The position numbers were made by a program, and so were the translations under genes. Shown piece after piece: positions 1 through 64,000 of a stretch of 64,000 bases of DNA (the stretch's first letter is position 1; every line of letters begins with the position of its first letter). The notes under the pieces were generated by a model. That model was not told where the DNA came from and searched no databases. It saw only the letters and a list, made by a program, of their open reading frames with translations. The DNA is from a virus (Duplodnaviria; Caudoviricetes): IMG/VR virus record IMGVR_UViG_3300021431_000084, one strand, 5' to 3'.

Positions 1-276
1 GAATACTTGTCAATAGCAAACATTTGTTCGTTGTTTGTACTATTGTCTTTGAGTAGTGCGTGCGGCAAGGCTAACCCTCTTCAGTATCGCATCTGTCTGT
101 GATCCTGTATCGAGTCGACCTTGCCGCTCATTGTATTTACTTTCGATTTATTATTATTTTATTTTATTTATCAATCCTTCATTGTTATCACCTTTCTTTC
201 TACCTTTTGGTTGTTTCCTGTTCCTTTTGGTTCTTACAAACTTAACACTTACATTGTGTTCTTAGCTGTTTATTGA

Positions 277-486
277 TTAAGTACAAATCTTGTAGAACTT
301 TTCTTTTGTGCCATTTACATAGTCAACATTGACTCTTACTACATACACATTAAGACCTTTGTCTGTTGCATCATTTACTCTTGTCTTTGCGTAAGTCTTT
401 GCGTCGTTGAAGTCCTTGAAGTTGTGCATGACTCTTGCGTATCCTACCTGTACCTTCCACATTGTATTAACTACTGTATTTGTCAT
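277..486 (-). CDS. small early hypothetical protein (69 aa)
   Basis: SD GAGGTG upstream; own sigmaA-type promoter at 519-547. Confidence 0.75.
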   Translation of the reverse strand: MTNTVVNTMWKVQVGYARVMHNFKDFNDAKTYAKTRVNDATDKGLNVYVVRVNVDYVNGTKEKFYKICT

Positions 487-518
487 TGTCCTGCACCTCT
501 TTCTCTTTTCTTAATTAG

Positions 519-547
519 AGTATAACAAAATAAATCCATACTTGCAA
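519..547 (-). promoter_or_regulatory. sigmaA-type promoter
   Basis: TTGCAA-N17-TATACT with extended -10 TG. Confidence 0.7.
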
Positions 548-617
548 CCTTTGCCCCATCTACAAATTGCACAAATTTCCGGAAACATTTTTGTGCAACC
601 TGACAAGAAAAAAGTGC

Positions 618-646
618 TTGATTTTTTGCTTCATGTATGGTAAAAT
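618..646 (+). promoter_or_regulatory. sigmaA-type promoter facing a short non-coding stretch
   Basis: TTGATT-N17-TAAAAT with TG extension. Confidence 0.5.
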
Positions 647-690
647 TTTCGGTCGGAGCCGACCTTTGTCGACTCTTCTCACACACACAA

Positions 691-726
691 GAAAAAAGAA
701 AAGAAGGGCTTAGCCCTTTCCTCTTT
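691..726. terminator. probable bidirectional intrinsic terminator
   Basis: AAGGGC-tta-GCCCTT stem flanked by A-rich and T-rich tracts, at the end of the 725-958 gene. Confidence 0.65.
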
Positions 727-958
727 AGTAGACATAGATTATTTCATAGTCTGAATCGAGTACCACAAGCACCTGACCGCACTTGTAATTCTCTCCATAA
801 AATTCCCAACTTTCACCATTTTCATCAATACAATAACAAACACCATTCGATGTACTTACCAAAGACATAGACCAAATTTCTACTCTGTCCTTTGGTGTTG
901 AAGTATTAGCACTTACCATTGTTGCAATTGTGATGATGAGAGAAATTAAGTTAGTCAT
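725..958 (-). CDS. small exported/membrane early protein (77 aa)
   Basis: hydrophobic N-terminus; SD GAGGA; consensus promoter at 993-1021. Confidence 0.75.
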   Translation of the reverse strand: MTNLISLIITIATMVSANTSTPKDRVEIWSMSLVSTSNGVCYCIDENGESWEFYGENYKCGQVLVVLDSDYEIIYVY

Positions 959-992
959 TATTCAGATCCTCTTTTCTTATTTATTCTATTTC

Positions 993-1021
993 ATTATACA
1001 TTATTAGTTAATTATTGTCAA
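993..1021 (-). promoter_or_regulatory. consensus sigmaA promoter
   Basis: TTGACA-N17-TATAAT. Confidence 0.85.
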
Positions 1022-1628
1022 TACATTTCCATTCCTCTTTTGGATTTTGTAACATAATTGTAACATTACTGTAATTTATTATTTGTCAATAGAATTTACA
1101 ATTTGTTTACAAATTTGTAACATTTGTTCTTGTCAATCTGCACAAAATTTTGGGATCTGGCAGGGTAAAAATTTGTGCAACCTGCACAATTGACAAAAGT
1201 GCTTTGGCGTGTATGACACGCCAAACGGCTCGCACCCAGCCGCCAGCGAGCCGAGGAACACAGTATTATTGTTGTGTATTGCTTTAGTATTCTTTTCTTT
1301 ATGTTATGTTTATTCTTATTTATTGCCATTGGTTTATCTATGTATTTATTATGTTTCTTTATTGTTTGTTTAGTACAAGGCTGCGTTGCGTGGGTCCTAT
1401 AATTTAGCCTCCCGAGGGTGCGGCTAACCACCCCTGTGGCTTCTGAGCAAATTACCACCTAGTATGGGGGGTATTATTTCGGGAGATTATGTGGTGAATT
1501 TTGAAAATCGATTTTTCCTGGCCCCAACTCCCAGCAAGAATTAATTTCATCTCCAATTACGACAACTTCTCATAAACGATAAAATATCTTCCTTTTTGCC
1601 CAAAAAATTTCTGTTTCTAAAAATTTTT

Positions 1629-4048: not shown

Positions 4049-5787
4049 TGGCTTTACAAGATTTAATTGATTTATCTAAACAGGCAGACCAAAAACATTC
4101 TGCTGAAGTTACGGAAGATAGAATAAAGGGAATTATTCCAGTAGCAAGACAATATATAAGTTTTTGGCGTGAATATCCAGATCTTTTTGTAGACTTCTTA
4201 CTTAAGATGGGTAATCCGCAGAATTTTGAGTTTTACTTTTTTCAAAGAGTGTTTTTAAGAGTGGCCATGCGGCACCAGTATGTGTATGCGGTCTTCCCTC
4301 GTGCTTATTCCAAGTCTTTCTTATCAATGATGACCCTTATGTTAAGATGTATTCTGTATCCTGGCTGTAAACTCTTCGTTACTTCTGGTGGTAAGGAACA
4401 GGCTGCAGGTATTATGAAGGAAAAAGTTCAAGAAATTTGTAATCTTATTCCTGCAATAGAAAGAGAGATAAATTGGGATAGAGGTATTACTCTTGAAGGT
4501 AAAGACTATGCTAAATATACCTTTAAGAATGGTTCTTATTTCGATAATATTGCAGCGAGGGAAAGTTCAAGAGGTAAGCGTAGACATGCGGGCGTTATCG
4601 AGGAGTGCGTCGGTGTCGATGGAGATATTTTGAGCACAGTCATTATCCCCACCATGAACATATCCCGTAGGTGTGCGGACGGTAGTACCCATCCTGAAGA
4701 GCAGCTGAATAAGGCTCAGTTATATATCACAACTGCAGGTTTTAAAAATACCTACGCATATGAGAAACTTATTCAAATTCTTGTATGGCAAATTGTTAAA
4801 CCTGAGAAAGCTATGATGATTGGTGGTACTTATAAAATTCCTGTTCTTGTTAAGTTGTTGGATAAACACTTTGTTCAAGACTTGAAAATGGACGGAACTT
4901 TCAATGAAGTATCCTTTCAGAGAGAATATGAGTCTAAATGGGCTGGTACTATTGAAGATGCTTTCTTTAATGCTGATGTCTATGATAGAAATAGAATATT
5001 AAAAGCACCAGAATATCAAGCATCTGGTCGTTCAAGTAAAAATACTTTCTATGTAATATCGGTCGACGTTGGTCGTAAAGGATGCGACTCTGTTGCGATT
5101 GTGTGGAAGGTAACTCCAGGAGCGCAAGGCACTTCATTAAAACAGTTAGTTAATATTTATACTAAAACTGCTGAACACTTTGAGGAACAGGCAATTTGGT
5201 TAAAACGATTATTTTATAAGTTCCAAGCAAAAAGACTTGTAATTGATGGTAATGGTCTTGGTATTGGCTTACTTGATTATATGGTTAAGCCGCAAACAGA
5301 TACAGAGACCAATGAAGTATTCCCAGATTTTGGTATTTACAATGATGAGGATGGTGAATACAAGAAGTTTAGAAGTGTAGAATGTCAGGATGATGCTATA
5401 TACGTCATCAAGGCCAACGCACCTATCAATACTGAGGCGCACGCAAATGCCCAATCTCAGCTTTCTTCTGGTAGAGTAAAACTTTTAATTGATGAAAGAG
5501 TTGCAAAGGGAAAATTATTAGGAACTGTTAAAGGAAATAATATGAAACCTGAAGAAAGGGCAGAATATTTAAAACCGTTTACATTAACTTCCATATTAAG
5601 AGAAGAGATGATGAATCTGCGAGAAGAGAATGATGGAACTAACATTATTCTTAAACGTGCAAATAAAGGTATCGCAAAGGATAAATTTTCTGCTTTTGAA
5701 TACGGACTTTATTATATCAAAAAAGAAGAAGACGAAAAGAAGAGAAGAAAAAAGAAATTTAATGCTAAAGAATTTAGATTTAAGTAA
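4048..5787 (+). CDS. terminase large subunit
   Basis: FFQR Q motif, Walker A-like PRAYSKS, RGKR, Walker B VIEE, ITTAG, FQREY, nuclease SVDVGR and KDKFSA. Confidence 0.92.
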   Translation: MALQDLIDLSKQADQKHSAEVTEDRIKGIIPVARQYISFWREYPDLFVDFLLKMGNPQNFEFYFFQRVFLRVAMRHQYVYAVFPRAYSKSFLSMMTLMLRCILYPGCKLFVTSGGKEQAAGIMKEKVQEICNLIPAIEREINWDRGITLEGKDYAKYTFKNGSYFDNIAARESSRGKRRHAGVIEECVGVDGDILSTVIIPTMNISRRCADGSTHPEEQLNKAQLYITTAGFKNTYAYEKLIQILVWQIVKPEKAMMIGGTYKIPVLVKLLDKHFVQDLKMDGTFNEVSFQREYESKWAGTIEDAFFNADVYDRNRILKAPEYQASGRSSKNTFYVISVDVGRKGCDSVAIVWKVTPGAQGTSLKQLVNIYTKTAEHFEEQAIWLKRLFYKFQAKRLVIDGNGLGIGLLDYMVKPQTDTETNEVFPDFGIYNDEDGEYKKFRSVECQDDAIYVIKANAPINTEAHANAQSQLSSGRVKLLIDERVAKGKLLGTVKGNNMKPEERAEYLKPFTLTSILREEMMNLREENDGTNIILKRANKGIAKDKFSAFEYGLYYIKKEEDEKKRRKKKFNAKEFRFK

Positions 5788-5802
5788 TGAGGAGAAAATA
5801 AA

Positions 5803-6159
5803 ATGGATGCTAGTAGAGGAGAAATAAAAATCCATGAGATTTTGGAGAACTTCGGTCTAAACTATAAAATGGAATTTATGTTTTCAGATTTGAAGACCTC
5901 CTCTGGCACTCCTCTTCGTTTTGACTTTGCTGTGTTTGATGATGATGGAAACCTTGATTTCTTAATAGAGTATCAGGGCAGACAGCATTACGAGGCCTCG
6001 TCACGATTCGGTGGCAAAGCGGGCCTCCGCAAACAGCAGTACAATGACCAACAAAAACGAAGATATTGTGCATTTCATGGTTATAAGTTAGTGGAAATTC
6101 CGTATACAGAAGAAAATCTTATTTCTTATGATTATATTATGAAAAAGGCTGGTTATTAA
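5803..6159 (+). CDS. Vsr/DUF559-like PD-(D/E)xK endonuclease
   Basis: SRGE...LRFDFAV...IEYQGRQHY...D..K..YC...LVEIPY. Confidence 0.75.
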   Translation: MDASRGEIKIHEILENFGLNYKMEFMFSDLKTSSGTPLRFDFAVFDDDGNLDFLIEYQGRQHYEASSRFGGKAGLRKQQYNDQQKRRYCAFHGYKLVEIPYTEENLISYDYIMKKAGY

Positions 6160-6195
6160 GCCAGCTTCCTACACTTTAGAGAAGGGGGTGAAAAA

Positions 6196-7794
6196 TTGAG
6201 AAATAGACAAGAATATATATACGATGACAAAGGCTCATATCTTGTCAAACCAAAAGTAGAGTTTGGTAAAATCAAAATAGATAGAAAAACTATTAATGAT
6301 GCTACTTTAAAAATGACTCAGCGTACTTATAAATGCGGTTCGAGAACATTTAAAATTGCTGATATTTATAGAGCGATAGATGAAAAGAATTTATTTTATT
6401 TGAGAGATATATCAAACTTCTTTTATGATACTAATGGTATTTATTCAAGGATATGTGATTACTTTGCTAACATGTATAGATTCGACTGGTACATCGTCCC
6501 TGAGATCTATGACCAAGAAAAGGTTGACAATGATAAAGTATTAAAGAAACTTTATTTCCTTTTAGGTTTTTTAGATAGTTCTTATATAAAAAAGAATTGT
6601 GGAGATATAGCATTAAAAGTTATTAAGAATGGAGCTTACTATGGCTATTTAGTGCCATCAAAAAATGGAATAGTCTTACAAGAATTACCTATTGCCTATT
6701 GTAGAAGTCTTTATAATTCTGGAAGTACACCAGTTATTGAATTTAATATGAGATACTTTGATGAAAACTTCATCGACCCAGAGTATAGAACTAAAATTCT
6801 TAATATGTTTCCCGATGAATTCAAAAAGGGTTATGTCCTTTATAAACAAGGTAAATTACCCGGAGATAATATACAGCAATCAACCTATTGGACAGGTACT
6901 CCAAGATGGTCACCCGCTTATATAAAAGATGGTTGGTACGCTCTTGAAGTTGGTTCTGCAATAAAATTTGCTTTTGCCAATGGAGATCAACCTCTTTTTG
7001 TAAAAGCTATTCCCGCAATTTTAGACTTAATGAATTCACAGGGAATAGATAAGCAGAAGCAGCTGCAGAATTTGCAGAAACTTCTCATTCAAAAATATCC
7101 ACTTGATAAGAACTTTGATTTAGTATTTGATTTGGATGAAATTAAAGACCTCCATGAAAATACTGTAGAAATGGTTGAAGATAATATTGGAGTTGGAGTT
7201 GTTTCTACTGTTGCAGATGTTGATGCAGTAGATATTGCAGATAATTCCACTTCTCAAAGTACAGATGTATTGGAGAGAATGGAACGTGGAGTTTACAATG
7301 CTTTTGGTGTTTCAAGAAACTTATTTAATTCTGACACAAGTTTGGCTCTTGAAAAATCTATTCTTGATGATGAATCTTCATTAAGAACTTTATTATTACA
7401 ATTTACTGCTTTTTTTGATAATATTGTGCAACATTTAGCTTCCAATAGCAAGTTTAAGTATAGATTCTATATGCTTGAAACTACACAATATAATTATAAA
7501 GAATTATCAAAAATGTATAAAGAGCAAGTACAGATTGGTTATTCTAAAATGTTACCTCAGATTGCTCTTGGTCATTCACAAAGTTCTATTTTACATAATG
7601 CTTACTTTGAAAATGAGGTATTGAATTTGAGTTCAATTATGATACCTCCTCTTATGTCTTCTACTATGAATGCAGAAAGTTTAGGAAGTATTACTGGTAA
7701 AGATAGCGGAGAATCACAAGAGGGTGCGGGCCGCCCCGAGAAGAGCGACAGCGAAAAGTCTGAGAAGACAGCAGCTAACCTAGAATCTATGTAA
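6196..7794 (+). CDS. portal protein
   Basis: 532 aa, between terminase and protease; C-terminal AGRP motif. Confidence 0.8.
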   Translation: MRNRQEYIYDDKGSYLVKPKVEFGKIKIDRKTINDATLKMTQRTYKCGSRTFKIADIYRAIDEKNLFYLRDISNFFYDTNGIYSRICDYFANMYRFDWYIVPEIYDQEKVDNDKVLKKLYFLLGFLDSSYIKKNCGDIALKVIKNGAYYGYLVPSKNGIVLQELPIAYCRSLYNSGSTPVIEFNMRYFDENFIDPEYRTKILNMFPDEFKKGYVLYKQGKLPGDNIQQSTYWTGTPRWSPAYIKDGWYALEVGSAIKFAFANGDQPLFVKAIPAILDLMNSQGIDKQKQLQNLQKLLIQKYPLDKNFDLVFDLDEIKDLHENTVEMVEDNIGVGVVSTVADVDAVDIADNSTSQSTDVLERMERGVYNAFGVSRNLFNSDTSLALEKSILDDESSLRTLLLQFTAFFDNIVQHLASNSKFKYRFYMLETTQYNYKELSKMYKEQVQIGYSKMLPQIALGHSQSSILHNAYFENEVLNLSSIMIPPLMSSTMNAESLGSITGKDSGESQEGAGRPEKSDSEKSEKTAANLESM

Positions 7795-7805
7795 GGAGGA
7801 GAAGG

Positions 7806-9185
7806 ATGAAACATACAAGTGTTATTGCAGGTGCGCCCTGCGAATTTATTGATGTAAAGCCTTTGAACCCACTTATTTCCAAATGTCATATTAAGGTTTG
7901 TTATGTAAGTGACAAGCCTAATCGTAATGGTAGTGTAATTACTAAAGAAGTAGCTACAAAAATGGCTAATTCACTCCCTGGTAGTCCTATTGTTGGCCTC
8001 TATAATGAGGCCACAGAGGACTTTGAGGAGCATAGTCGTTCCATTGAGATTTCTGGTGACAAATGGGAAGTCAAAGAACTTACTAAGCCTTATGGTTTTG
8101 TTCCTACGGACGCTAAGTGTTGGTTTCAAGATTTTATTGATGATGGAGATACTATTCATAAGTATCTTATGACAGAAGGTTATTTATGGACTGGTCAGTA
8201 TCCAGAGTGTCAAAGAGTTATAGATAAGGGAAACAATCAATCTATGGAATTGGATCCAAATTCTATTGATGCTGAATGGTCAGAAAGTAATAATGACGAA
8301 CCTTCATTTTTCATTATAAATGAAGCAATAATATCAAAACTTTGCATTTTGGGAGAAGAAATGGAACCTTGCTTTGAAGGTGCCACTATTAAAGGTGCTG
8401 ATTATTCTTTAATTAAAGATAATGAAGAGTTTAAGAAACAGTTATTCTCTATGATGCAAGAAATAAAGGATTTATTGGAAAATACTGAAGAAGGAGGAAC
8501 AGAAGATTTGGACGGAGATATCGAAATGATTGATGTTACTAATCCAGAGGCTCAGGTTGAAGAAACTGATGTTCAGGTTACTGATACAGAATTTGCTGAT
8601 AACTCTGGTGAACAGGCAGAAGTTACTCCATCTTCTGAGGATAGCGAAGGCGCTGGTTCCGAAGAAGATAGCACAGAAGGACAGGCTGCCGGAGAAGAAG
8701 GTTCAGAGGAAAACGATGAATCTGATGAAAATTCTGGGGGCGAAAATGATGAATCAGAAACCTCGGAAATTCAATATAATTTAGAAGAGATTCCTGAATA
8801 TGTTGCTCTTGCTAAAGAGTACGCAGAGTTGGAATCACGCTGTGCCGCACTCGAAGCGGAGCTTACTCCACTTAAGGAGTTCAAGCTTAACGCAGAAAAG
8901 AAACAGAAGCAGGCAATGATTGATTCATTCTATATGCTTTCTGATTCTGATAAGGAAGATGTTATCAAGAACATTGATACTTATTCTTTAGACCAGATTG
9001 AGGCAAAGCTTTCAGTTATTTGTGTTCGCAACAAGGTAAGTTTTAACCTTGATTCAGAGGAAAAGAAGGAAGAAGTGCCCGCTGCTAATTTTAATTTAGA
9101 CAGTTTAGCTTCTCCTGATGCTGCTCTTGAATCTGCTCCAGCATGGGTTAAGGCTGTCCTTGAAACCGAAAAAGAAATGGTATAA
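7806..9185 (+). CDS. prohead protease with acidic C-terminal scaffold region
   Basis: NRNGS, QSMEL and LCILG...PCFEGA motifs; acidic linker and coiled coil. Confidence 0.75.
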   Translation: MKHTSVIAGAPCEFIDVKPLNPLISKCHIKVCYVSDKPNRNGSVITKEVATKMANSLPGSPIVGLYNEATEDFEEHSRSIEISGDKWEVKELTKPYGFVPTDAKCWFQDFIDDGDTIHKYLMTEGYLWTGQYPECQRVIDKGNNQSMELDPNSIDAEWSESNNDEPSFFIINEAIISKLCILGEEMEPCFEGATIKGADYSLIKDNEEFKKQLFSMMQEIKDLLENTEEGGTEDLDGDIEMIDVTNPEAQVEETDVQVTDTEFADNSGEQAEVTPSSEDSEGAGSEEDSTEGQAAGEEGSEENDESDENSGGENDESETSEIQYNLEEIPEYVALAKEYAELESRCAALEAELTPLKEFKLNAEKKQKQAMIDSFYMLSDSDKEDVIKNIDTYSLDQIEAKLSVICVRNKVSFNLDSEEKKEEVPAANFNLDSLASPDAALESAPAWVKAVLETEKEMV

Positions 9186-9211
9186 AATTTTAAAAGGAGG
9201 AAAATACAAAA

Positions 9212-9997: not shown

Positions 9998-10013
9998 GAA
10001 AGGAGAAATTAAG

Positions 10014-11135: not shown

Positions 11136-11147
11136 TAATAAAAATCT

Positions 11148-56140: not shown

Positions 56141-57675
56141 TAACATTGTTCAAAGGCTCCTTCTTCTTCTACCATAATGCTCAAATTGTTAATCTGAACA
56201 ATTTCATAATCATAAGTTGTTGCAAACATTGGTTGAATTCTACAAGTTCCAAGATTTGCTTTACACCAAAGATATATTCCCTTATATCTTCCTCGTCTAT
56301 TCTTATAGATAGACAACTTAATTGCTGGTGTCTCAAAAGTTCCGGTACTTAAAATATCAACAAGTGCTTCTTTATCTTTCTGTGTTACTCCTAAGAGAAT
56401 AGCACCGTAGTCAATCTTATCAGCTATGGCTTTAGCACCTCTTAACAAGTTCTGGTCAGGTGTCTCTGAATCTACATAAGAACCATTCAACTGTGTAGCA
56501 CTTTCGATAAATACTCCATACTGATTACAAATATCCTTAAGTTTTGTAGAAAGGATAAACAAAATATTATCCTCTCTTAACTTAACTCCACCACTTCTTC
56601 TTGTTATCTCTTCCAAGATTTTCATTGAGGTATGAATATAATCATGGAATACATATTTAACATCGTGTTCACGAATGTTCTGCTTAATCTTATTCTCAAC
56701 ATCCTGCAACGAGAAGTCAGGAAGTTCCTCAACATAAAGAGGACTACGAGATATAACCTGTGCGGCGTGGAGGACGCGCTCCTCTTCATCGCCCACATAT
56801 GTACCATTGAGGATGTGGTCTTCATCGACATTGGACAAGAACGCAAGCATCATCGTCTGGACTTCTTTCAAATCCTGCTCTGTTGCTATGAACAAAGTTG
56901 GTTCCATTGTTCCATTCTTAATCCAACCAAATGAATCATCATATATTTCATCGCACGCGATATAGCATGCATCAGCAATCAGGCTACGTGTCTTACCAAT
57001 ACCAGTGGCCGCACTTCTAATATAGAACTTTCTTAATCTTGCGCCCCTCGTTACTGTGTTGATTAAGTTCCCATACAAAGGAACTCCTACTTCTGGGTTC
57101 TCCTTCAAATCATTAATTAAGTCAATGATACCGTCACCAGCCTGTGAAGCCTCCCCATAAGATTCATCAACATATTGTAATCTAATTGCTTCAATTTTTC
57201 TATCAACTTTATTCGCAATATCTTCAAGAGTCATATTATCCAGTTGGTCTTCTTGAAGTTGCTTTTTCTTTACATCTAATAAATCTGGATCATAAATGTC
57301 AGTTACATCTATTCCATAATTGTCATATACTCTCAAAAGTGTCATTTTCTTTAAGCGATTATAATAGTAGTCAAATGATAATGTCTGCGCACTATCTGTG
57401 ACTTTCATTAACCATTTGTCGCCATCTTGCTTTTTATAAATCGCTTCGCTCTTGGGTCTTGAAGACAAGAAGTCATTTATATTTTCAAGAGTTATTGTCT
57501 TCGCTCCCAATTCATGAATCTTATATATAGCACCGAAGACAACTCTGTGGAAATCATCAGTGAAGTCCTCGTCTGTTACTATATACTTGTCAGTGAGTTC
57601 CAAGAGGTTAGGGTTGTTATATACACAACCGATAACCTGAACTACACTTGTCATATCTACATATTTTGAACCCAT
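56140..57675 (-). CDS. dnaB: replicative DnaB-like helicase
   Basis: AATGIGKT, IATE, HDYI, ATQLN, KNRRG. Confidence 0.9.
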   Translation of the reverse strand: MGSKYVDMTSVVQVIGCVYNNPNLLELTDKYIVTDEDFTDDFHRVVFGAIYKIHELGAKTITLENINDFLSSRPKSEAIYKKQDGDKWLMKVTDSAQTLSFDYYYNRLKKMTLLRVYDNYGIDVTDIYDPDLLDVKKKQLQEDQLDNMTLEDIANKVDRKIEAIRLQYVDESYGEASQAGDGIIDLINDLKENPEVGVPLYGNLINTVTRGARLRKFYIRSAATGIGKTRSLIADACYIACDEIYDDSFGWIKNGTMEPTLFIATEQDLKEVQTMMLAFLSNVDEDHILNGTYVGDEEERVLHAAQVISRSPLYVEELPDFSLQDVENKIKQNIREHDVKYVFHDYIHTSMKILEEITRRSGGVKLREDNILFILSTKLKDICNQYGVFIESATQLNGSYVDSETPDQNLLRGAKAIADKIDYGAILLGVTQKDKEALVDILSTGTFETPAIKLSIYKNRRGRYKGIYLWCKANLGTCRIQPMFATTYDYEIVQINNLSIMVEEEGAFEQC

Positions 57676-57681
57676 TGTTCT

Positions 57682-58188
57682 TTACTCCTTGTCTAAAAAA
57701 CTAAACAATCTTCTTTTTCTTTTTTGCGGTCTTTCTGGACTTTTTATGTGAACCACTTGTTGTTGTATCTGTAAGTCAGCGGCAGTTTTATCTTTATTCT
57801 TTTGGTTTGCTTCCCAAATGGAATAATAATAATTATAAGCATCTTTGTAAATATATGGAACTATTCCAATACCACTATTTGCTTTTTCTATTGAATTACC
57901 TTTGACTTCATAAAAATACACCAATGCTTTATGAATACCAGAATAAGTATAATGATATTCTTCAACATATTGCTTAATCTGTTTTTGTATTCTTGGTGTC
58001 ACATAATCGAGTTTAAACAACTTCATTATGTAGTTATCAAGTGCAGTTTTGTCATTTGCCTCCTTTTGCTCAGCTTCTGTTCTTTTTTCGTAACACTCTT
58101 TATGAGAATATCTATTGCCTTCTTTGACACACGGAACAGTATCGCGGTCAAAAGTCTGATTACAGCACTTACATTTAACTTTGTGCAT
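57682..58188 (-). CDS. replication-module Zn-finger protein (possible loader/initiator)
   Basis: CKCC...HKEC, GIGIVPYIY; SD AAGGAG; directly upstream of the helicase. Confidence 0.55.
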   Translation of the reverse strand: MHKVKCKCCNQTFDRDTVPCVKEGNRYSHKECYEKRTEAEQKEANDKTALDNYIMKLFKLDYVTPRIQKQIKQYVEEYHYTYSGIHKALVYFYEVKGNSIEKANSGIGIVPYIYKDAYNYYYSIWEANQKNKDKTAADLQIQQQVVHIKSPERPQKRKRRLFSFLDKE

Positions 58189-58225
58189 GAACAGATTTCT
58201 CCTTTTAAAAATATTATACAATAAT

Positions 58226-58276
58226 ATTATAACATTTTTTATTAAAAAAGCCAACCCGATATTGAATCGGGTTGGC
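58226..58276 (-). terminator. intrinsic terminator overlapping the next sigmaA promoter
   Basis: GCCAACCCGAT/ATCGGGTTGGC stem + T6; TTGGCT-N17-TATAAT at 58254-58226. Confidence 0.8.
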
Positions 58277-58371
58277 CTGACATAGAAAGGATAAGATACT
58301 TTGATAGAGTTTACTGTTTAGATGATCTTCTAAAAGATTGGAAATTATTAAAATAAACTCTGGGATAAAAG

Positions 58372-59343
58372 TTAAAGTAAAGTATCCTTAATTTCTCCAT
58401 TAATGACTGCGATAACCTCTGCCTGAGCAATAGTTGCATCGCCAATCTTCTTGCCCTTACCAAGATGCTTCTCAATAATAGCGGTAATCTTAGGCTGATA
58501 ATCTTGGCTCTTATTCATAAGAGTAGTAGCCATTTCCTTGAACTCAGCCATAAGACTGTCAAAGTCGTAAGTTGCAGCAGCTGCAATCTTCTCCTTTTCT
58601 TCAGTAACAAACTTGTTACCAGTGTTATTAGCTTCTTCGTCAATTGCCTTATTCAAAGCATCAACGAGTGACTGATATGAGAAAGGAATTACCTTGTCAA
58701 TGCAAGAGAATCTTGATTTGCACTCAATAGTTCCATCGTCTGAACGAAGAACCAACTTTCTTTCTCCCTTATCAACATCAATATAACCCTCAATATCAAC
58801 CATGTTCTTAATGATTTCATTATAAACATTAGAGCAAGAAGGGCCGATAGCGTTATACTGTGTCTGGTCCTTGTTAGTGACAGTTCTCTCCTTTGAGTGT
58901 GAAATGAAAACAACTGCATATCCCTTCATAGCAATATTACGGAAAGTTGTCTCCCACTCCTTCTTTACCTTGGCCCAACCATTCTTAGTCCAGCCACCGT
59001 CACCAATATTTTCAATATCAAGCTGAGAACAAACATACTTCTCACAAAGTTGTGAAGCAATATCTACTGTATCAATAACAACACTCTTGAAATTTTCTTT
59101 AACCTCTGGGTCGTCCAGCTGACGAAGAACTTGCTTCATTTCTGCCCAAGAAGTAATATCCTGAGCAATAACTCCCGGCAATGCGTTATATCCACGCTCA
59201 AATGCAAGTAAGAGTGGATCGGGCATCTGGGAACCGAAAGTTGTCTTTCCGGCTCCACCCGGTCCGTAGATATAAGTAATATAGCCAGAAAGATCTCTAC
59301 TTACCTTGTGGGGCTTTAACCCCTTAAGATTTATAGTTGCCAT
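58372..59343 (-). CDS. AAA_24/Sak4-like P-loop ATPase (recombination)
   Basis: YGPGGAGKTT, VVIDT, FISH, KSRF. Confidence 0.8.
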   Translation of the reverse strand: MATINLKGLKPHKVSRDLSGYITYIYGPGGAGKTTFGSQMPDPLLLAFERGYNALPGVIAQDITSWAEMKQVLRQLDDPEVKENFKSVVIDTVDIASQLCEKYVCSQLDIENIGDGGWTKNGWAKVKKEWETTFRNIAMKGYAVVFISHSKERTVTNKDQTQYNAIGPSCSNVYNEIIKNMVDIEGYIDVDKGERKLVLRSDDGTIECKSRFSCIDKVIPFSYQSLVDALNKAIDEEANNTGNKFVTEEKEKIAAAATYDFDSLMAEFKEMATTLMNKSQDYQPKITAIIEKHLGKGKKIGDATIAQAEVIAVINGEIKDTLL

Positions 59344-59363: not shown

Positions 59364-60281
59364 TTAGAAATTAAATCCGCCTGCTGCAGCGGGAGCAGCA
59401 GTTGCACCCTTAGCTGCCTTTCTTTCCTCATATCCAGCCTTGATAGTTGCGAGATATGTCTCTCTGTCTGCAAGAGCCTTAGTCAACTCAGCAGCAGTGA
59501 TTGTACTCTCATCGTCCCAAGCATAGATGTCCTTCTGTGCATTGTAGATGATCCATTTCTTTGTCTCTCTTGTTGTTTCAGTTACGATGTCATCACCGAA
59601 AGCTGACTCCTCAACCTTCTGCTTTGTAACTGTCTGTGAGAGAACACGAACATATACCTTAGTGAAGACAGGGTTCTTTGAAGATGCATCAAGACCCTCG
59701 AAGTAAGAGATAGCATTAGGATTCTCTACCTCAAATTCAACAGGAAGGAAGTCCTTTCTGTAAGGTCCAAATACTGCACCCTTAACAAAAGTTCTTGCGG
59801 GATAGTTCTCAGTTGCATCAAGAGTTCTCATACCAGAGATAACCATATCTGCTTCAATATAGTTTCTCTTATTAACATCCTTATCAATATCAGTTACGGC
59901 ATGAACAAACTTACCCTCAATTCTCTTTGCACTAACAAGTTCTGTCTGACCATCACGCTCTGTATAGAAGTCATTTACTCCAACTTCACCATCAATCTTA
60001 ACCATTGTGTTTCCGCCACCCAACTGAGTAGGAAGAACACCATCAATAATCTTTTTGAGAACTGTATAAGTTGCGTTCTCCTTGCCAGCCTTAGTTGTAG
60101 CTGTCAAATATGTAAAATGAACAGGTACAATGTTATTTGTATCAGGATCAGTCAATACTCTGAGTTCACCTGTAATGTACTCTGTTCCGGGATTCTTTGA
60201 ATTCTCACCTGTTACCTTAGCCTGAAGCTTGTGCTCGTATACAATTCCTTCTACATGGGACTTATTTACAATTGCCTTCAT
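59364..60281 (-). CDS. putative ssDNA-binding protein
   Basis: beta-rich, high-expression codons, flexible tail ending in F, next to the Sak4-like gene. Confidence 0.6.
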   Translation of the reverse strand: MKAIVNKSHVEGIVYEHKLQAKVTGENSKNPGTEYITGELRVLTDPDTNNIVPVHFTYLTATTKAGKENATYTVLKKIIDGVLPTQLGGGNTMVKIDGEVGVNDFYTERDGQTELVSAKRIEGKFVHAVTDIDKDVNKRNYIEADMVISGMRTLDATENYPARTFVKGAVFGPYRKDFLPVEFEVENPNAISYFEGLDASSKNPVFTKVYVRVLSQTVTKQKVEESAFGDDIVTETTRETKKWIIYNAQKDIYAWDDESTITAAELTKALADRETYLATIKAGYEERKAAKGATAAPAAAGGFNF

Positions 60282-60311: not shown

Positions 60312-60980
60312 TTATAACATATTATTTTTATATTTCCAAATATAACCGCCAGCGGTTTTGCCTTTTCCATTACATACATTACAAATAGTTGCTTTTGCAA
60401 TTCCTGTTATTTTTGAAGCTTCAGCTATTGAATTATATTCTTCAATTATTTCTTTTGTTTCTTTATCTAATTGTATAACCGTAAAATCAGTACGTTTTAT
60501 TATTGGAAGTATTTTTTTTGTATCATCAGCATATTTCCATTGATATGTACCTGATTGTTGAATTATTCCACGACAACATTTACATATCTGTGTATGGGAA
60601 ATTCCAGTGATTTGACTAGCTTGTGAAGCACTTGGATATTCTTTTATAAATTTTCCTTGTAAATCAAATTGAAGAACCTTTTTTCCCTTAGCATAACCAG
60701 CACCATTAGTACCTCCCTCTATCATGTTATATCCATTAGGTACCAAAGACTGATAAAAATTTATCCAATAAATTTCTTTTTCGTCTAATTCTTCTACTGA
60801 ACATTCTTCTAAAATTTGAAAAGTAAAATTTTGGATTCCGTATTTCTTAAATGCTTGATGTATAGCAAAATCATCTTTTGCAAACAAATGGTCGTGCCAT
60901 CTTTTTTCAATATATAAACTTTGTCCAATATAGATTTTATGATTTATTAGATTTTCTATTTTATAGATACCTGTAATCAA
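60312..60980 (-). mobile_element. GIY-YIG homing endonuclease with two NUMOD1-like repeats
   Basis: GIYKIEN...YIGQS; VLQFD...S.S.AS...I.KCC...GTYQWKY twice; AT-rich. Confidence 0.85.
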
Positions 60981-61049: not shown

Positions 61050-61391
61050 TTAGTCAATTTTAATATTTTTACCTTTTTCGGTGATACAATAAATAATAGG
61101 GTCTTCCCCAATCTTTTCAACAAAACCATCAGTTACCAGTTTACGCATGGCTCCAGACACGGATCTTGATGAAATAAACATTGCTTCTGCAATGTCCTTT
61201 GCCTTTCCCTTCTCCATTGTGGTTTGCATAAAGTTAAGAATAAGCTTACCATTATCAGAGAGGAGTGGCTTTTCCTTTTCCTCCTTGTTCTTTAAAGCGT
61301 ACCAATAATCAGCAACATCAGCATCTAATTCTCCACACTTTGACATTAAATTCTGTTCTACAAATTCAATAAATTTTTCCTTTTTTGACAT
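61050..61391 (-). CDS. winged-helix DNA-binding protein
   Basis: AKDIAEAMFISSRSVSGAMRKLVTDGFVEK. Confidence 0.8.
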   Translation of the reverse strand: MSKKEKFIEFVEQNLMSKCGELDADVADYWYALKNKEEKEKPLLSDNGKLILNFMQTTMEKGKAKDIAEAMFISSRSVSGAMRKLVTDGFVEKIGEDPIIYCITEKGKNIKID

Positions 61392-61459: not shown

Positions 61460-62128
61460 TTAACCATTTTTGTCCGCTTTGCAGGAATGAGTTTCTGGAC
61501 AAGAGCCTAAATAAACACATTTTGGAACCATATAATTTTTAACTATATAATCCCATTCCTCTGAATACTCAGATAATGCCTTCATTATATCTCTCATTAA
61601 ATCTCTGAATTCCCAATAGGCTCTGTTACAAAGTCTTTGATGGGACATATCAATAAGATTACGCATATTAGTTCTACAAATAATTCTTGTTTTCATACCA
61701 AGAGGTAGAATATTAGCAATATCTTCCTTGGGAATACCAAGGTTAATTAGTTGCTCATAACAACCAAGAATTTCTCCCATTGTTTTTTCATATCTCCATT
61801 TTGCGTAAGCATTATCTGCAATAGAAGGAGGAGTTACAAAACCAAAGTTATCATAGTCAATATACCTAGTTGAAGCTTGAAGTCGAGTTGGTCCACCGGC
61901 AATATGAGTGTAAAACTCTCTAATTACCCTTGCGGAATAGCCATCGAGCGTCAAATATACCTGTGGGAGTTCAAATGTGCGGCCATGCCCACTTTTGATA
62001 TTCTCCAAACCTCTTTTGTAATTCTTTTCCTCGTTTGTTACATCTGAACCATAACAAACCCCACTTTCATATCCAATCAATGAAATAGGGTTCTTTGTAG
62101 TGTGATTTTGAATTGTAACTTTTCCCAT
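61460..62128 (-). CDS. thyX: flavin-dependent thymidylate synthase
   Basis: GHGRTFE, SARV..E, QASTRY, ILPLG, NMRNL, RLCNRA.WE.R. Confidence 0.85.
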   Translation of the reverse strand: MGKVTIQNHTTKNPISLIGYESGVCYGSDVTNEEKNYKRGLENIKSGHGRTFELPQVYLTLDGYSARVIREFYTHIAGGPTRLQASTRYIDYDNFGFVTPPSIADNAYAKWRYEKTMGEILGCYEQLINLGIPKEDIANILPLGMKTRIICRTNMRNLIDMSHQRLCNRAYWEFRDLMRDIMKALSEYSEEWDYIVKNYMVPKCVYLGSCPETHSCKADKNG

Positions 62129-62129
62129 C

Positions 62130-63080
62130 TTATCCTCGTTTCATATTGTAACCAAATTCCATACCTTGATAGAAAGTAATCCAATACTTTTCTTTCTCAT
62201 TGAGTTCTGCTCTTGAGCATTCTTCTATAATTTCAAAAGTAAAATTATCTACACCTTCTTTAAGCATGGCGGGGTATAATTTATTTTGTGTTGGAGTTTC
62301 AGCACCCATACCTCGCTTGATATGTTGTTTCCAACGGTCAGCGATATTAACTGCTTGTCCAACATAGGTTTTACCAGAAGTGATATTAGTAATTTTATAA
62401 ATTCCAGTTTTAATAGAACTGCCCACAACTCTACCAATTAAATCAGTATATGGTTTCTCGTAATAAGTTTTCCATATAACTTTATTAAGAGGTTCGGGAT
62501 TACGGAAATGACTTAATAACTCCTGTAATTCTTTTATCTCTTTCTTATCTTCGTCAGATAAAACTATACGATAAAAGTCTGCTTTATCTTTTTCTGCGGC
62601 GGCTCGCTTATTAACTTCAACCGCTGCATCTACTGCGGCCTTGGTGACACGGATCTTCTCCAGCAAGCCCGCAAGTTCTATATTCTTTTCTTCTATCTGC
62701 TTTTGGAAGTCTACTGTGTACTCCTCAAGAGTTGCCAAGTATTCTTCTTTTCCTTCTTCCTCGGCTTTTGAATATAGGTTTTCTAATTCCTTAACCTTAG
62801 CATCAAACTGAGCATTAGCAGTTTCTACTTTACTATCTAAATACTTTTGAGCATAATCATCAGCATTATTTTGTTTTTGTTGTAAAGTATCTGTTAAGTC
62901 AATCAACTTTTGGTTCAATTCATCAACATCTTTTTTTCGTTGATTATAGAGAGCTAATTCCGTGCGGTTTTGCTGTTCTATTTGTTTATCAAGTTGTTTT
63001 GTTTGTTTGAGTTTCGGAAGGAAGAATATGGCACACAGAATAATTCCAATAACAAGTCCTAAAATTATTCCTATCCACAT
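62130..63080 (-). CDS. TM + coiled coil + C-terminal GIY-YIG nuclease
   Basis: N-terminal TM helix; GIYKITN...YVGQA...RW..H...E..WI...GYN. Confidence 0.8.
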   Translation of the reverse strand: MWIGIILGLVIGIILCAIFFLPKLKQTKQLDKQIEQQNRTELALYNQRKKDVDELNQKLIDLTDTLQQKQNNADDYAQKYLDSKVETANAQFDAKVKELENLYSKAEEEGKEEYLATLEEYTVDFQKQIEEKNIELAGLLEKIRVTKAAVDAAVEVNKRAAAEKDKADFYRIVLSDEDKKEIKELQELLSHFRNPEPLNKVIWKTYYEKPYTDLIGRVVGSSIKTGIYKITNITSGKTYVGQAVNIADRWKQHIKRGMGAETPTQNKLYPAMLKEGVDNFTFEIIEECSRAELNEKEKYWITFYQGMEFGYNMKRG

Positions 63081-63083
63081 AAT

Positions 63084-63113
63084 AAAAGAGGGGGTGAAGT
63101 GTCCCCCACCCCC
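63084..63113 (-). terminator. intrinsic terminator
   Basis: GGGGGTG...CACCCCC followed by TCTTTT. Confidence 0.7.
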
Positions 63114-63136
63114 TATCTCCTATATCTTAGTTCTGA

Positions 63137-63412
63137 TTACTCCTCAGTCTTGTCGGGATCGAAAGCCAAGCCCTCTTCAGTAAGAGAGAGGAACTTAACC
63201 TCAGAAGTAGAGCCATCCTCATTCTGGATAGTAGCAGGTGTACGAACACCATAACCCTTTCTCTGGATAGCAGAAGTGAAAGCACCATCAACAGTCTTCT
63301 TAGGGAGACCGAGTGTCTCAGCTACATCTGCTGCAGTAACCTGTGTACCATTGATTTCCTTGAGGTAGTTAAAAATCTTCTTTGAGTTCTCTGACATTGC
63401 CATAATTTTCAT
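63137..63412 (-). CDS. small winged-helix DNA-binding protein, probably abundant
   Basis: TAADVAETLGLPKKTVDG...LTEEG; capsid-like codon bias; own promoter (63463-63491) and terminator. Confidence 0.75.
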   Translation of the reverse strand: MKIMAMSENSKKIFNYLKEINGTQVTAADVAETLGLPKKTVDGAFTSAIQRKGYGVRTPATIQNEDGSTSEVKFLSLTEEGLAFDPDKTEE

Positions 63413-63480
63413 TTCTCCTTTAAATAAATTTAATTTTCTTAAGCCTTAATGCTTATGTAAATATTATATCAAAAAATTTT

Positions 63481-63690
63481 TTATAAACCAAGTTTTTCTT
63501 TTTTATTCTGTACGAACACCACAGCCAATTCCTGTATGTCGTCCAGATCTTTAAATGAGTCAATCTTATTGGATAAGTTTATAACCGTATCCTTTGCTTG
63601 TCTCACCTCTTCGGAATTAGAACTGGTCATAATGATGATTTCGGCATCTGCGATTTGAGTAGCCATTCTAATCTTCTCTTTTTTAGTCAT
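63481..63690 (-). CDS. hypothetical protein
   Basis: promoter at 63725-63753; SD AAGGA. Confidence 0.65.
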   Translation of the reverse strand: MTKKEKIRMATQIADAEIIIMTSSNSEEVRQAKDTVINLSNKIDSFKDLDDIQELAVVFVQNKKEKLGL

Positions 63691-63744
63691 AAAAAGTTTC
63701 TTTCCTTATAATATTTATAAGATAATTATAACACTTTTTTATTT

Positions 63745-64000
63745 TTATCCCAAAAATTTGTTGATGAATTCTTCTTCTGTGAGAACAGGTATTCCCAACT
63801 TCTGAGCCGTTACATTCTTGGACGAAGTGGAAGTGTTATCGTTATTAATCAAGTAGTTAGTTTTTGCACTAACTGATGAAACCACTTTGCCCCCAGCTGC
63901 TTCGATCTCGGTCTGCAAGGCCGCACGATTCTTATAATGTACTAATTTACCAGTAATACATACACTTACTCCAGCAAGAGAATCGCTCGCACTCTCCTTT
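63745..64000 (-). CDS. ligA: C-terminal BRCT domain, probably of an NAD-dependent DNA ligase (partial)
   Basis: VCITGKL...R...IEAAGGKVVSSVSAKTNYLI...K...AQKLGIPVLTEEEF. Confidence 0.8.
   Translation of the reverse strand, partial: KESASDSLAGVSVCITGKLVHYKNRAALQTEIEAAGGKVVSSVSAKTNYLINNDNTSTSSKNVTAQKLGIPVLTEEEFINKFLG

Follow-up and report, generated by a model that had tools for sequence, protein, structure and literature searches.

A polar TGCGG(C) motif with a one-sided GC-rich tract overlaid on the genes of a large uncultured phage

Genes and motif sites in the window

The window, by which we mean the whole stretch of DNA analyzed (64,000 nt of an uncultured Caudoviricetes phage, record IMGVR_UViG_3300021431_000084; 34.7% GC), carries on its minus strand genes for a putative DnaG-like primase (Zn ribbon plus Toprim, YorJ-like; 55037-56146) and a RecJ-like 5'-3' ssDNA exonuclease (YorK-like; 53256-55037), both of them inferred candidate actors. 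On the same strand lie the genes for an AAA_24/Sak4-like annealing protein (YorG-like; 58372-59343), a further candidate actor whose gene is free of the motif described here, and for a RuvC-like resolvase (37169-37705), which provides a recombination context.

The word TGCGG/CCGCA was present in 104 copies (52 TGCGG and 52 CCGCA) and TGCGGC/GCCGCA in 47 (22 and 25), in close agreement with the approximately 100 and 47 copies that an earlier note on this DNA had estimated by eye. The excess over base composition claimed there was maintained under codon-aware null models, with z values of about 11. Synonymous-codon shuffles within genes predicted 41.7 ± 5.8 copies of TGCGG (z 10.8), 11.1 ± 3.1 of TGCGGC (z 11.7) and 2.3 of TGCGGCC (19 observed), while codon permutation predicted 36.7 copies of TGCGG (z 11.0). 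TGCGG ranked first in over-representation among all 512 5-mers and TGCGGC first among 6-mers, with the control words AGCGG (z 1.5), TGCCG (z 0.3) and CGCGG (z -1.0) at expectation in the window; one-mismatch neighbour words of TGCGG showed no measurable depletion. In line with the previously reported occurrence in differing reading frames, all six frame/strand classes were enriched (observed/expected 13/4.2, 31/10.9, 12/3.1, 10/5.8, 4/0.4 and 33/16.5), and the enrichment is therefore not a codon-pair effect. Ala-Ala pairs were the largest contributors (GCC-GCA, 19 vs 4.5 expected; GCG-GCC, 8 vs 1.0), and the two Ala-Ala frames, NNT-GCG-GNN and GCC-GCA, held 64 of the 104 copies.

The motif had a frame-independent extension, K-TGCGG-C-N4-S, with 37 copies against 2 expected (an 18-fold excess), and the S at +10 was frame-independent in three genomes (p 2.5e-8 to 4e-27). 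This position, 6 nt 3' of the core, is one helical turn away from where the motif starts. On the plus strand, full sites (TGCGGC-N4-S) with their 3' tracts were located at 61-110, 1419-1468, 2387-2436, 4268-4317, 11641-11690, 21137-21186, 25481-25530, 26816-26865, 31275-31324, 37974-38023 (conserved in the relatives L002 and L003), 41562-41611 and, in the Pol III alpha gene, 44777-44826 (both conserved in relatives), 48256-48305 (GC 0.60), 50033-50082, 50545-50594, 54780-54829 (containing GCGGCCGC; GC 0.23 upstream and 0.57 in the tract), 61978-62027, 62595-62644 and 62634-62683, the last closed by a convergent CCGCA at 62669. On the minus strand, where CCGCA forms the right end and the tract runs to the left, as at 1866-1915 (GC 0.68), they were found at 5245-5294, 8800-8849, 13155-13204, 13325-13374, 18727-18776, 26659-26708, 26854-26903, 29029-29078, 30497-30546, 33006-33055, 42616-42665 and 44887-44936 (both conserved in relatives), 52702-52751, 54920-54969 (GC 0.20 upstream and 0.60 in the tract), 56964-57013 and 63876-63925 (GC 0.60); a further full site, at 33737-33786, overlaps a convergent TGCGG at 33773.

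Copies were spread over both strands of both arms, as claimed before, with an even strand balance (52:52 in the window and 224:223 in the 161-kb related genome G010), Poisson spacing (CV 1.00), random orientation and a density of one site per 1.2 kb per strand. The reported absence from capsid, tail-tube and endonuclease genes also held: no copy was present in 3.9 kb of scaffold, capsid-like, tube-like and Sak4-like genes (P 0.002), nor in three mobile homing-endonuclease ORFs (P 0.035). By contrast, convergent pairs, which the earlier note had described as enclosing GC islands, do exist but were not significantly in excess (13 vs 8.9 within 260 nt, P 0.08).

The one-sided tract and its recurrence in relatives

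The GC-rich tract proposed on the 3' side of TGCGG was borne out, both by GC content, which was 0.50, 0.42 and 0.41 at 0-10, 10-20 and 20-40 nt downstream compared with 0.36-0.38 upstream, and by GC3, which rose from 0.26-0.28 upstream to 0.46, 0.40 and 0.39 over 45 nt on the 3' side only. The GC3 rise (Wilcoxon p 2e-6) was similar whether the motif lay on the coding strand or on its template. The up/downstream asymmetry of TGCGG was the largest of all 32 [AT][GC]4 words, and the other 31 words of the same composition, used as controls, showed neither enrichment nor polarity. Over 729 pooled sites, the excess GC per 10-nt bin downstream was +0.116, +0.058, +0.055, +0.036 and +0.018, and about 0 upstream, which corresponds to a one-sided exponential decay with a length constant of 26 nt. 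The boundary was sharp, at the T of the motif, and the tract was roughly 25-50 nt long, with a decay traceable to about 45-80 nt. Better-matching sites had stronger tracts, a dose-response partly due to GC autocorrelation. Of the 83 GC islands, 46 had the motif at their 5' edge, and the position of the motif at islands was biased 42:8 towards the 5' edge, compared with 120:126 for control words. GC-rich words in general also clustered in islands.

The signal recurred in diverged relatives, with enrichment in G010 (447 vs 242 expected, z 19.8) and in G007 (183 vs 87, z 13.5), and palindromic double sites, TGCGGCCGCA, accumulate in relatives. Its type varied by lineage: TGCGS, TGCCGC or TGGCGC took its place in some relatives, others, such as G009, were motif-free, G008 was of the TGCCG type, and G001 and L099 combined an enriched motif with a weak tract. 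These switches occurred without matching changes in the conserved replication proteins and therefore fit an exchangeable or host-supplied enzyme. The signal was absent from bacterial contigs, including DNA of equal GC content, and from SPbeta; the bacterial contigs had neither polarity nor S at +10. Loss of individual sites was informative as well. At the core-only TGCGGA site at 40807-40850 (plus strand), the motif was replaced by AGCAG in L002, and about 12 synonymous differences started exactly at the motif and spanned approximately 40 nt 3' of it; at 35886-35930 (minus strand), a core site with a GC island, L002 and L003 lacked the motif and carried AT-rich synonymous codons across the whole tract. 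Enrichment in all frames, both coding orientations, the frame-independent S at +10, the absence from equal-GC bacterial DNA and the recurrence in diverged relatives together support a DNA-level signal overlaid on the genes, the core proposal of the earlier note, rather than a coding effect.

At codon position 3, polarised S->W substitutions occurred at a lower rate within the tract than elsewhere (0.209 vs 0.294, Fisher p 6e-4), whereas W->S substitutions were more frequent there (0.150 vs 0.116, p 0.03). The resulting GC* of the tract, 0.418, was near its current value of 0.424, compared with a GC* of 0.283 elsewhere. Since the total difference rate was not raised (0.058-0.065 vs 0.057-0.075), this pattern indicates a fixation bias at equilibrium, and neither hypermutation nor a relic. 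Sites turned over in a near-neutral manner with slight retention (0.79 vs 0.70 for controls, p 0.06), and polymorphic motif variants were mostly CpG transitions. Recombination was rampant, with 24% of adjacent informative site pairs failing the four-gamete test; incompatibility within tracts was not significantly higher (0.30 vs 0.24, n=30). The GC-biased fixation in the tract favours a reading of the recombination or repair type, and the Poisson spacing, random orientation and near-neutral turnover of sites are drive-like.

Candidate processes

The earlier note had listed four mechanisms and preferred none of them: a host-Chi mimic, a recombination hotspot, a primase start site and a loading site for a phage DNA-binding protein. 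A coding or compositional artefact, caused by a preference for Ala-Ala codon pairs, by clustered rare codons or simply by uneven GC content, would fit the weight of the two Ala-Ala frames and the clustering of GC-rich words, but is hardly credible and was largely refuted: enrichment is 2- to 10-fold in each frame/strand class and persists under synonymous and codon shuffles, the control words behave differently, template-strand copies show the mirror image of the arrangement, and equal-GC bacterial DNA, SPbeta and G009 lack the signal. We regard as very unlikely that the motif, one base from the B. subtilis word AGCGG, is a Chi-like regulator of host AddAB/RecBCD that protects linear phage DNA and triggers recombination, its lineage variants reflecting different hosts. 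It is a 5-mer ending in GCGG, as are AGCGG and the end of GAAGCGG, its type changes while replication proteins do not, and in non-phage contigs of a bin with a related phage TGCGG (2.3x) and TGCCG (2.6x) were the top of six words tested. For E. coli Chi, moreover, nucleotides 4-7 on the 3' side form a functional context (PMC5041463), comparable to the S found here 6 nt 3' of the core. However, this host-Chi mimic, advanced in the earlier note, is weakened because strand skew is nil, as opposed to 50:6 for AGCGG in SPbeta, and because by analogy with AGCGG the tract falls on the side degraded by AddAB. In addition, bacterial contigs share neither polarity nor S at +10, and the density and the long-form excess surpass known Chi statistics.

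Also unlikely is a start site of the phage primase, another idea raised earlier, in which the DnaG-like enzyme (55037-56146) would read 5'-(G)CCGCA-3' on the lagging-strand template with a cryptic 3' A, primers would begin with pppGCGG, and the GC stretch would stabilise primer and first DNA or be a signature of primer replacement. Its geometry stands, with synthesis from the motif through the tract and a sharp boundary at the T; TGC is constant among the variants TGCGG, TGCGC and TGCCG, sites are needed on both strands at a density close to Okazaki length, a 10-nt primer could have its 3' end at the S (+10), and the signal is phage-specific and adjoined by a conserved primase-helicase module. 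Neither the T7 benchmark nor co-variation of the primase lent support: no primase residue co-varies with the two independent TGCGG-to-TGCCG switches (the single diagnostic column falls outside the zinc ribbon), the same primase is retained by motif-free relatives (57-58% identity), and known T7 primase sites are just 1.0-1.3x over Markov expectation. Spacing is Poisson rather than even, the tract exceeds DnaG primer length, and the TGGCGC lineage violates the TGC rule. It appears quite unlikely that the motif is kept by selection as a site where a DNA-binding protein of the phage (or of the host) loads or binds. Such a protein, for example one nucleating coating, condensation or segregation, or a helicase, would contact TGCGGC plus a G/C one helical turn away and need stable GC-rich duplex on one side, as the S at +10 in three genomes, the stronger tracts at better sites and the slight motif retention suggest; GC-favouring fixation at a normal rate is likewise expected from purifying selection. 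Against this, no protein follows the motif in its occurrence (the gene for a winged-helix protein at 61050-61391 is also present in motif-free G009 and TGCCG-type G008), single sites turn over almost neutrally with Poisson spacing, the tract fades smoothly and exponentially to about 80 nt, unlike a footprint, and GC autocorrelation accounts for part of the dose-response.

The best reading, held tentatively and at less than even probability, is a short-patch process that is anchored at the motif, runs in one direction and fixes alleles with a GC bias, the motif accumulating by drive. K-TGCGG-C-N4-S would be the start point of a short-range transaction on phage DNA, most likely one in which an enzyme of phage or host origin nicks a specific strand, or incises a mismatch, at the motif. 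Removal and resynthesis in the 5'-to-3' direction, or heteroduplex correction, would follow over a patch averaging about 26 nt. Given the constant recombination of these phages with close variants, such a patch would act as a very short gene-conversion tract, in which G/C alleles would be fixed more often than A/T, moving synonymous sites towards a higher equilibrium GC. Preferential transmission or restoration of the motif would make it accumulate by molecular drive, halted only where strong codon selection opposes it. This short-patch process is suggested by the enrichment unexplained by coding, the sharp one-sided decay, GC-biased fixation at an unraised rate, rampant recombination and the motif losses in L002 and L003, as well as by the absence of the motif from structural, Sak4-like and endonuclease genes, the palindromic double sites, motif-type switching and the 5'-edge position at GC islands. 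Against it count that five genomes of related phages revealed no nickase, Vsr or DNA methyltransferase (a Vsr family member was confirmed in a candidate host bin), that gene content of motif-rich vs motif-free genomes yielded no annotated candidate, that the four-gamete excess in tracts is not significant, that neighbour words are undepleted and that tracts are weak in G001 and L099. Plain co-conversion alone gives no GC bias; it requires in addition either a bias in mismatch correction or selection acting on the stability of the tract. An identical substitution pattern is expected if a functional site with a GC-rich flank is under selection.

Comparison with known systems

A large uncultured phage and many relatives thus carry hundreds of TGCGG(C) copies, each starting a one-sided GC-rich stretch. 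T7-like primases recognize pentanucleotides (5'-GGGTC, TGGTC, GTGTC; 5'-GCA in SP6) built from a trinucleotide core, a cryptic 3' base and two preferred bases, which occur on both strands and direct one-way synthesis. The phage motif shares the trinucleotide core, both-strand occurrence and one-way polarity, but T7 sites have neither its excess beyond Markov expectation nor its compositional tract, and the primase here is of the DnaG/YorJ type. Chi words (AGCGG in B. subtilis, GAAGCGG in S. aureus, GCTGGTGG in E. coli) are likewise polar, species-specific, GCGG-rich words of 5-8 nt with a 3' context a few nucleotides away. Unlike them, the motif has no strand skew and is phage-specific, not common to bacterial contigs, and we know of no 25-50-nt GC-biased tract for Chi.

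The Pasteurellaceae USS, with the core AAGTGCGGT and one-sided T-rich tracts, occur in hundreds of copies on both strands, mostly in genes and in several frames, are missing from recently acquired genes and have had their accumulation attributed to a molecular drive opposed by coding constraint (PMC3458573, PMC2817400). Both systems combine a short GCGG-holding core with a polar compositional flank in hundreds of mainly genic copies on both strands and in several frames, with recently acquired genes free of them. They differ in that the phage flank is GC-rich rather than T-rich, that C and not T follows GCGG with no AA before it, and that the carrier is a phage with probably Firmicutes hosts and no uptake step. 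To our knowledge, sequence-specific DNA uptake is not known in Firmicutes.

In E. coli, Dcm/Vsr very-short-patch repair incises beside a mismatch in a short word, resynthesizes a short patch in one direction and leaves the word over-represented. Recombination hotspots subject to GC-biased gene conversion (gBGC) show a local rise in equilibrium GC at an unraised rate. In contrast to Dcm/Vsr, the five related phage genomes lack Vsr and methylase and neighbour words are not visibly depleted. We are not aware, in either Vsr repair or gBGC, of a tract of about 26 nt that is anchored at a motif and extends strictly to one side, nor of either process being described as shaping phage genomes. The signal suggests a directional process on DNA that has not been described before, whether of repair, recombination or priming, overlaid on genes and of unproven mechanism. 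The short-patch process proposed here would resemble Vsr repair in its short patch and word excess and gBGC in its raised GC* at a flat rate, and its drive may be likened to that of uptake sequences, or of CCWGG under Vsr repair.

The TGCGG word and its distribution in the window

The 64-kb window has a GC content of 34.7% and derives from a tailed phage that is large and uncultured. Its structural arm is encoded on the + strand, with the portal gene at 6196-7794 and the gene for a 3100-aa tape measure protein at 18165-27467, and its replication arm lies on the - strand. The core of the latter is collinear with the yorF-yorL module of the Bacillus phage SPbeta and comprises, all on the - strand, the genes for a 305-aa protein (p305; 59364-60281), a Sak4/AAA_24 protein (58372-59343), a DnaB-like helicase (56140-57675), a DnaG-like primase (55037-56146), a RecJ-like exonuclease (53256-55037) and a Pol III alpha-like polymerase (42327-46178). 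NrdD, ThyX, dUTPase, guanylate kinase, a RuvC-like resolvase and a Dda-like helicase are also encoded in this arm, together with four homing-endonuclease-type genes (46251-46775, 50730-51596, 60312-60980 and 62130-63080), of which three are of the GIY-YIG type (with HTH, NUMOD or neither) and the fourth has matches in PHROG families of HNH or intron-encoded endonucleases. The first three of these genes are very AT-rich, motif-free and missing from many relatives. No near-identical record was found among GenBank phages; IMG/VR holds close variants at 89-98% nucleotide identity and, in addition, over 145 diverged relatives, whose genomes reach 240 kb.

The copy numbers counted by eye in the earlier note proved to be exact, with 104 TGCGG/CCGCA and 47 TGCGGC/GCCGCA. 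When synonymous codons were shuffled inside each gene, preserving the proteins and per-gene codon usage, 41.7 ± 5.8 and 11.1 ± 3.1 copies were expected, respectively, so that the excess survived (z 10.8 and 11.7); for TGCGGCC, 19 copies were observed against 2.3 expected. Under this null, TGCGG was the most over-represented of the 512 strand-symmetric 5-mers and TGCGGC topped all 6-mers, and the control words AGCGG, TGCCG and CGCGG were at expectation. With regard to reading frame, 64 copies were located in the two Ala-Ala frames (NNT-GCG-GNN and GCC-GCA), and all six frame/strand classes were enriched, 2- to 10-fold, which means that codon-pair preference cannot be the cause.

Both arms carry sites, in a strand ratio of 52:52 without regional skew. 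Sites averaged one per 1.23 kb on each strand, with random orientation and Poisson spacing (CV 1.00), and a search for regular spacing in the window found none. Convergent pairs around GC islands, to which the earlier note had drawn attention, do occur, but no excess over chance was found. Its statement that capsid, tube and endonuclease genes lack the motif held: 3.9 kb of scaffold-, capsid- and tube-like and Sak4 genes contained no copy (P 0.002), nor did three homing-endonuclease ORFs (P 0.035). The word is thus absent from strongly codon-selected and from newly arrived genes. As a separate observation, the scaffold-like, capsid-like and Sak4 genes (9212-11135 and 58372-59343) have the highest GC3 (GC at codon position 3) among the larger genes, 0.37-0.38, and their GC-rich codons are spread evenly and not as islands; a GC3 of 0.38 was also found for the gene at 1682-2737.

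Base preferences extend beyond the pentamer. G or T is favoured on its 5' side (GTGCGG, 31 copies vs. 7.2 expected; TTGCGG, 42 vs. 14) and C directly on its 3' side, and G or C occupies position +10 in 70% of sites compared to 43% of controls (p 2.5e-8). This last preference was present in each reading frame examined and is therefore a feature of the DNA and not of the codons. In dinucleotide-preserving shuffles, TGCGGC-N4-S (S, G or C) was expected 2.06 ± 1.41 times, and 37 copies were observed.

The polarity of the tract was likewise borne out. GC content on the 3' side was 0.50, 0.42 and 0.41 at 0-10, 10-20 and 20-40 nt, compared to 0.36-0.38 on the 5' side, an asymmetry that was the largest among the 32 words formed by one A or T followed by four G or C. 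It resides mainly at synonymous sites, with GC3 passing from 0.26-0.28 upstream to 0.46, 0.40, 0.39 and 0.32 downstream; plotted against oriented distance, GC3 rose downstream alone, for coding- and template-strand motifs alike (Wilcoxon p 2e-6). Among the 83 GC islands in the window (30-nt windows with a GC content of at least 60%), 46 contained the motif, while any control word was found in 13 at most. In 42 cases the motif was closer to the upstream edge of its island and in 8 cases to the downstream one (p 1e-6), in comparison with 120:126 for controls. Across 729 sites in three genomes, the excess GC decayed smoothly and exponentially with a length constant of 26 nt, was gone by ~85 nt and was nil upstream, demonstrating a strictly one-sided effect that starts from the word. 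Hairpin or ssi-type structure within the tract was rejected, as there was no excess over dinucleotide shuffles (z -0.06).

Relatives, outside controls and close variants

TGCGG also ranked first among 5-mers in relatives with a DnaB identity of just 62-75%. In synonymous shuffles of two related phage genomes, 447 copies were observed against 242 expected in the 161-kb G010 (z 19.8; strand ratio 224:223), and 183 against 87 in G007 (z 13.5). Both the one-sided tract (n 447; 0.47/0.42/0.40 downstream vs. 0.36-0.38 upstream) and the preference for G or C at +10 (n 447; 0.70, p 4e-27) recurred in relatives, the tract being weak in some motif-rich lineages of higher GC. Furthermore, the palindromic double site TGCGGCCGCA (10 bp, holding a NotI site) occurs eight times in G010 (L121-L128) and four times in the relative G001 (L152-L158), genomes of 36-40% GC in which fewer than one GCGGCCGC is expected. 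Specificity varies by lineage: some favour TGCGS, some TGCCGC, one TGGCGC and others nothing. In the complete 198-kb relative G009, no enriched word, polarity or +10 signal was detected.

A comparison of gene content between the motif-rich G010, G007 and G001 and the motif-free G009 yielded six small unannotated ORFs, at least one of them apparently spurious and antisense. All genomes compared had the winged-helix protein (61050-61391 in the window), and no accessory gene tracking the motif was found in this comparison. Similarly, no residue of primase, DnaB, Dda or p305 co-varied convincingly with the switch to TGCCG. A motif-free clade (L047-L052) has just short ORFs for the RecJ-like and Dda-like genes (238 and 191 aa), which are full-length (~590 and ~390 aa) in most motif-bearing relatives; splitting, interruption or replacement of the genes in that clade may account for this.

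Beyond the family, neither TGCGG enrichment nor polarity was seen in the contigs of a Lachnospiraceae bin (33-38% GC). Non-phage contigs of an Acutalibacteraceae bin had 2.3-fold TGCGG and 2.6-fold TGCCG, with no polarity and G or C at +10 in 0.40. These results rule out a generic trait of low-GC bacterial DNA, and SPbeta rules out a generic trait of phages with its type of replication module, as it carries the homologous module yet no TGCGG enrichment (52 vs. 79). The reading of the earlier note, a code at the DNA level overlaid on the genes, is supported by its occurrence in all frames, on both coding strands and in a phage-specific manner; the word is phage-specific, with a specificity that varies between lineages. 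In SPbeta (L118-L120, NC_001884.1), the B. subtilis Chi AGCGG is not over-represented (56 vs. 79) and is very strongly strand-skewed (50 on +, 6 on -). Two contigs deposited in bacterial MAG bins (Bacilli and Acutalibacteraceae), L100 (JAFVUY010000119.1, 158 kb) and L101 (JAZNWP010000048.1, 176 kb), carry the replication module of the family and are probably phage genomes binned with bacteria, which makes bin taxonomy a weak guide to the host.

Eleven close variants, covering 47 kb of the window, were used to follow how sites and tracts evolve. Differences were no denser in tracts (0.058-0.065) than elsewhere (0.057-0.075), ruling out hypermutation of the tract. With substitutions at third codon positions polarised by an outgroup variant, the rate per site from G or C to A or T was 0.209 in tracts vs. 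0.294 elsewhere (p 6e-4), and the reverse rate 0.150 vs. 0.116 (p 0.03). Equilibrium GC was 0.418 in tracts (current GC, 0.424) and 0.283 elsewhere (current, 0.263); since equilibrium equals current GC, relic tracts were also ruled out. Fixation at a normal rate is thus GC-biased, and an ongoing bias, by selection or biased conversion, keeps tract GC higher. Single motifs turned over near-neutrally, with a retention of 0.79 compared to 0.70 for control words (p 0.06), and their variants were mostly CpG transitions (TGCAG or TGTGG). At some sites, the motif and its tract had come or gone together as one unit. At 40807, the aligned relative L002 lacks the motif and shows ~12 synonymous differences in 40 nt starting exactly at the motif, and at 35926 two relatives have neither the motif nor the island present in the window.

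The variants recombine very frequently. Four-gamete failure affected 24% of adjacent informative pairs, so the co-occurring variants are highly mosaic; the frequency was 0.30 in tracts and 0.24 elsewhere (n 30, not significant). Mosaicism relative to close variants was located at 5412-14200, 41903-46237 and 53539-59207, where about a quarter of adjacent parsimony-informative pairs were incompatible.

Other words were biased too. In the window, GATCA (81 vs. 150, z -7.1), AGATC (z -5.4), CTAGA (a CTAG word, 22 vs. 62) and AACGT (26 vs. 70) were strongly under-represented compared to synonymous shuffles, and the depletion of GATC, CTAG and AACGT words looks like restriction-site avoidance. TGCGC, which holds GCGC, was avoided in the window (0.6-fold), in L077 (0.6-fold) and in L100 (0.1-fold), while it was 4-6-fold enriched in the sister lineages L071, L073 and L078; at the aligned positions, the avoiding phage has TGCAC or TGTGC, i.e., CpG transitions. 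This contrast points to host-dependent pressure from restriction or methylation of the HhaI type.

Candidate mechanisms and significance

A one-sided, decaying pattern is what a directional process of stochastic length begun at the word would leave. The reading that we rank first, tentatively, is that one specific strand would be incised or nicked at the motif, with short-patch resynthesis or heteroduplex correction to follow. Each patch would then amount to gene conversion over a very short tract with a GC bias, and molecular drive would raise the number of motifs. The GC bias itself is an assumption of this nick-and-patch model and is not explained by it. A broader and somewhat doubtful proposal is that the 11-bp asymmetric word would be a new type of self-propagating DNA element, carried throughout this family of large phages from gut and rumen. 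Its recognition by a nicking or repair activity would launch a one-directional, GC-biased conversion patch of ~26 nt. Together with its flank, the word would spread through the genome by drive during phage-phage recombination, switching specificity between lineages (TGCGGC, TGCGS, TGCCGC, TGGCGC or none).

No phage-encoded C5 methylase, N4/N6 methylase, nickase or Vsr was found in five related phage genomes. An enzyme supplied by the host would explain the specificity switch, given that primase, DnaB, Dda and p305 lack convincing matching changes. In the candidate host bin G002 (L184, G002:C143), the genes for a C5 DNA methyltransferase (excisionase-like at its N-terminus), a Vsr mismatch endonuclease and a MutT-like Nudix hydrolase are tightly clustered. 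The specificity of this methylase could not be inferred from solved structures, and the cluster is a lead only, as bin membership of phage contigs is unreliable.

Among the alternatives, a Chi-like site is improbable. The motif fits the Chi sequence family and also the idea of a 3' context, a functional one having been reported for Chi (PMC5041463). However, strand skew is absent (52:52 in the window and 224:223 in G010, vs. 50:6 for AGCGG in SPbeta), and the tract is on the wrong side. A primase start site has a better, though still doubtful, standing and offers the best geometric fit: there is a cryptic T/A and a constant TGC, synthesis would run into the tract, the G/C falls at the tenth primer base, and sites lie on both strands at approximately Okazaki spacing. 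Against this, the spacing is Poisson, no diagnostic zinc-ribbon residue accompanies two independent TGCCG lineages, motif-free relatives retain the same primase, and the known primase pentamers of T7 are hardly enriched (just 1.0-1.3-fold over Markov expectation). A selected loading site for a protein, which fits the contact at +10 but has no candidate protein, is unlikely. That the motif is a coding artefact of codon-pair or compositional origin is essentially excluded, being contradicted by the synonymous shuffles, the 32-word comparison, the enrichment in six classes and the mirror on the template strand.

Genome-wide polar words such as Chi, KOPS, uptake sequences and primase sites are rare windows onto DNA handling. 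To our knowledge, no polar word trails a one-sided, GC-biased synonymous tract, and none of this type has been described for phages. GC-biased conversion and drive have been debated mostly from bulk statistics in bacteria; should biased short-patch conversion be at work here, it would provide a clean, motif-anchored viral system in which to measure both. A primase or loading site would instead reveal which sequence the SPbeta-type replication module recognises and exemplify how replication shapes codon choice. Under either reading, over half of the GC islands found in these AT-rich genomes are accounted for by the motif, which also distorts Ala-Ala codon pairs and could act as a lineage or host marker for this large group of uncultured phages.

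Comparison with known systems

CCWGG accumulates by drive under Vsr repair. Unlike in Dcm/Vsr, no C5 methyltransferase or Vsr was encoded in the five related phage genomes, both being present in bin G002 only. The T-for-C neighbours of the motif were close to expectation (TGTGG, 66 vs. 68; TGCAG, 140 vs. 152), where the expected shift is small compared to the noise, and depletion of one-mismatch neighbours was not detectable in the window. As in a hotspot of GC-biased gene conversion, equilibrium GC is raised by fixation bias with the rate unchanged. In common with USS/DUS uptake sequences, which accumulate by molecular drive (PMC3458573, PMC2817400), the word is present in many-fold excess on both strands, inside genes and in several frames, and is missing from recently acquired genes, here three homing-endonuclease ORFs. 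No description of a motif-anchored, one-sided, GC-biased tract was found in the literature. The phenomenon is closest to Chi, uptake-sequence and very-short-patch systems, and differs from each of them in at least one defining feature.
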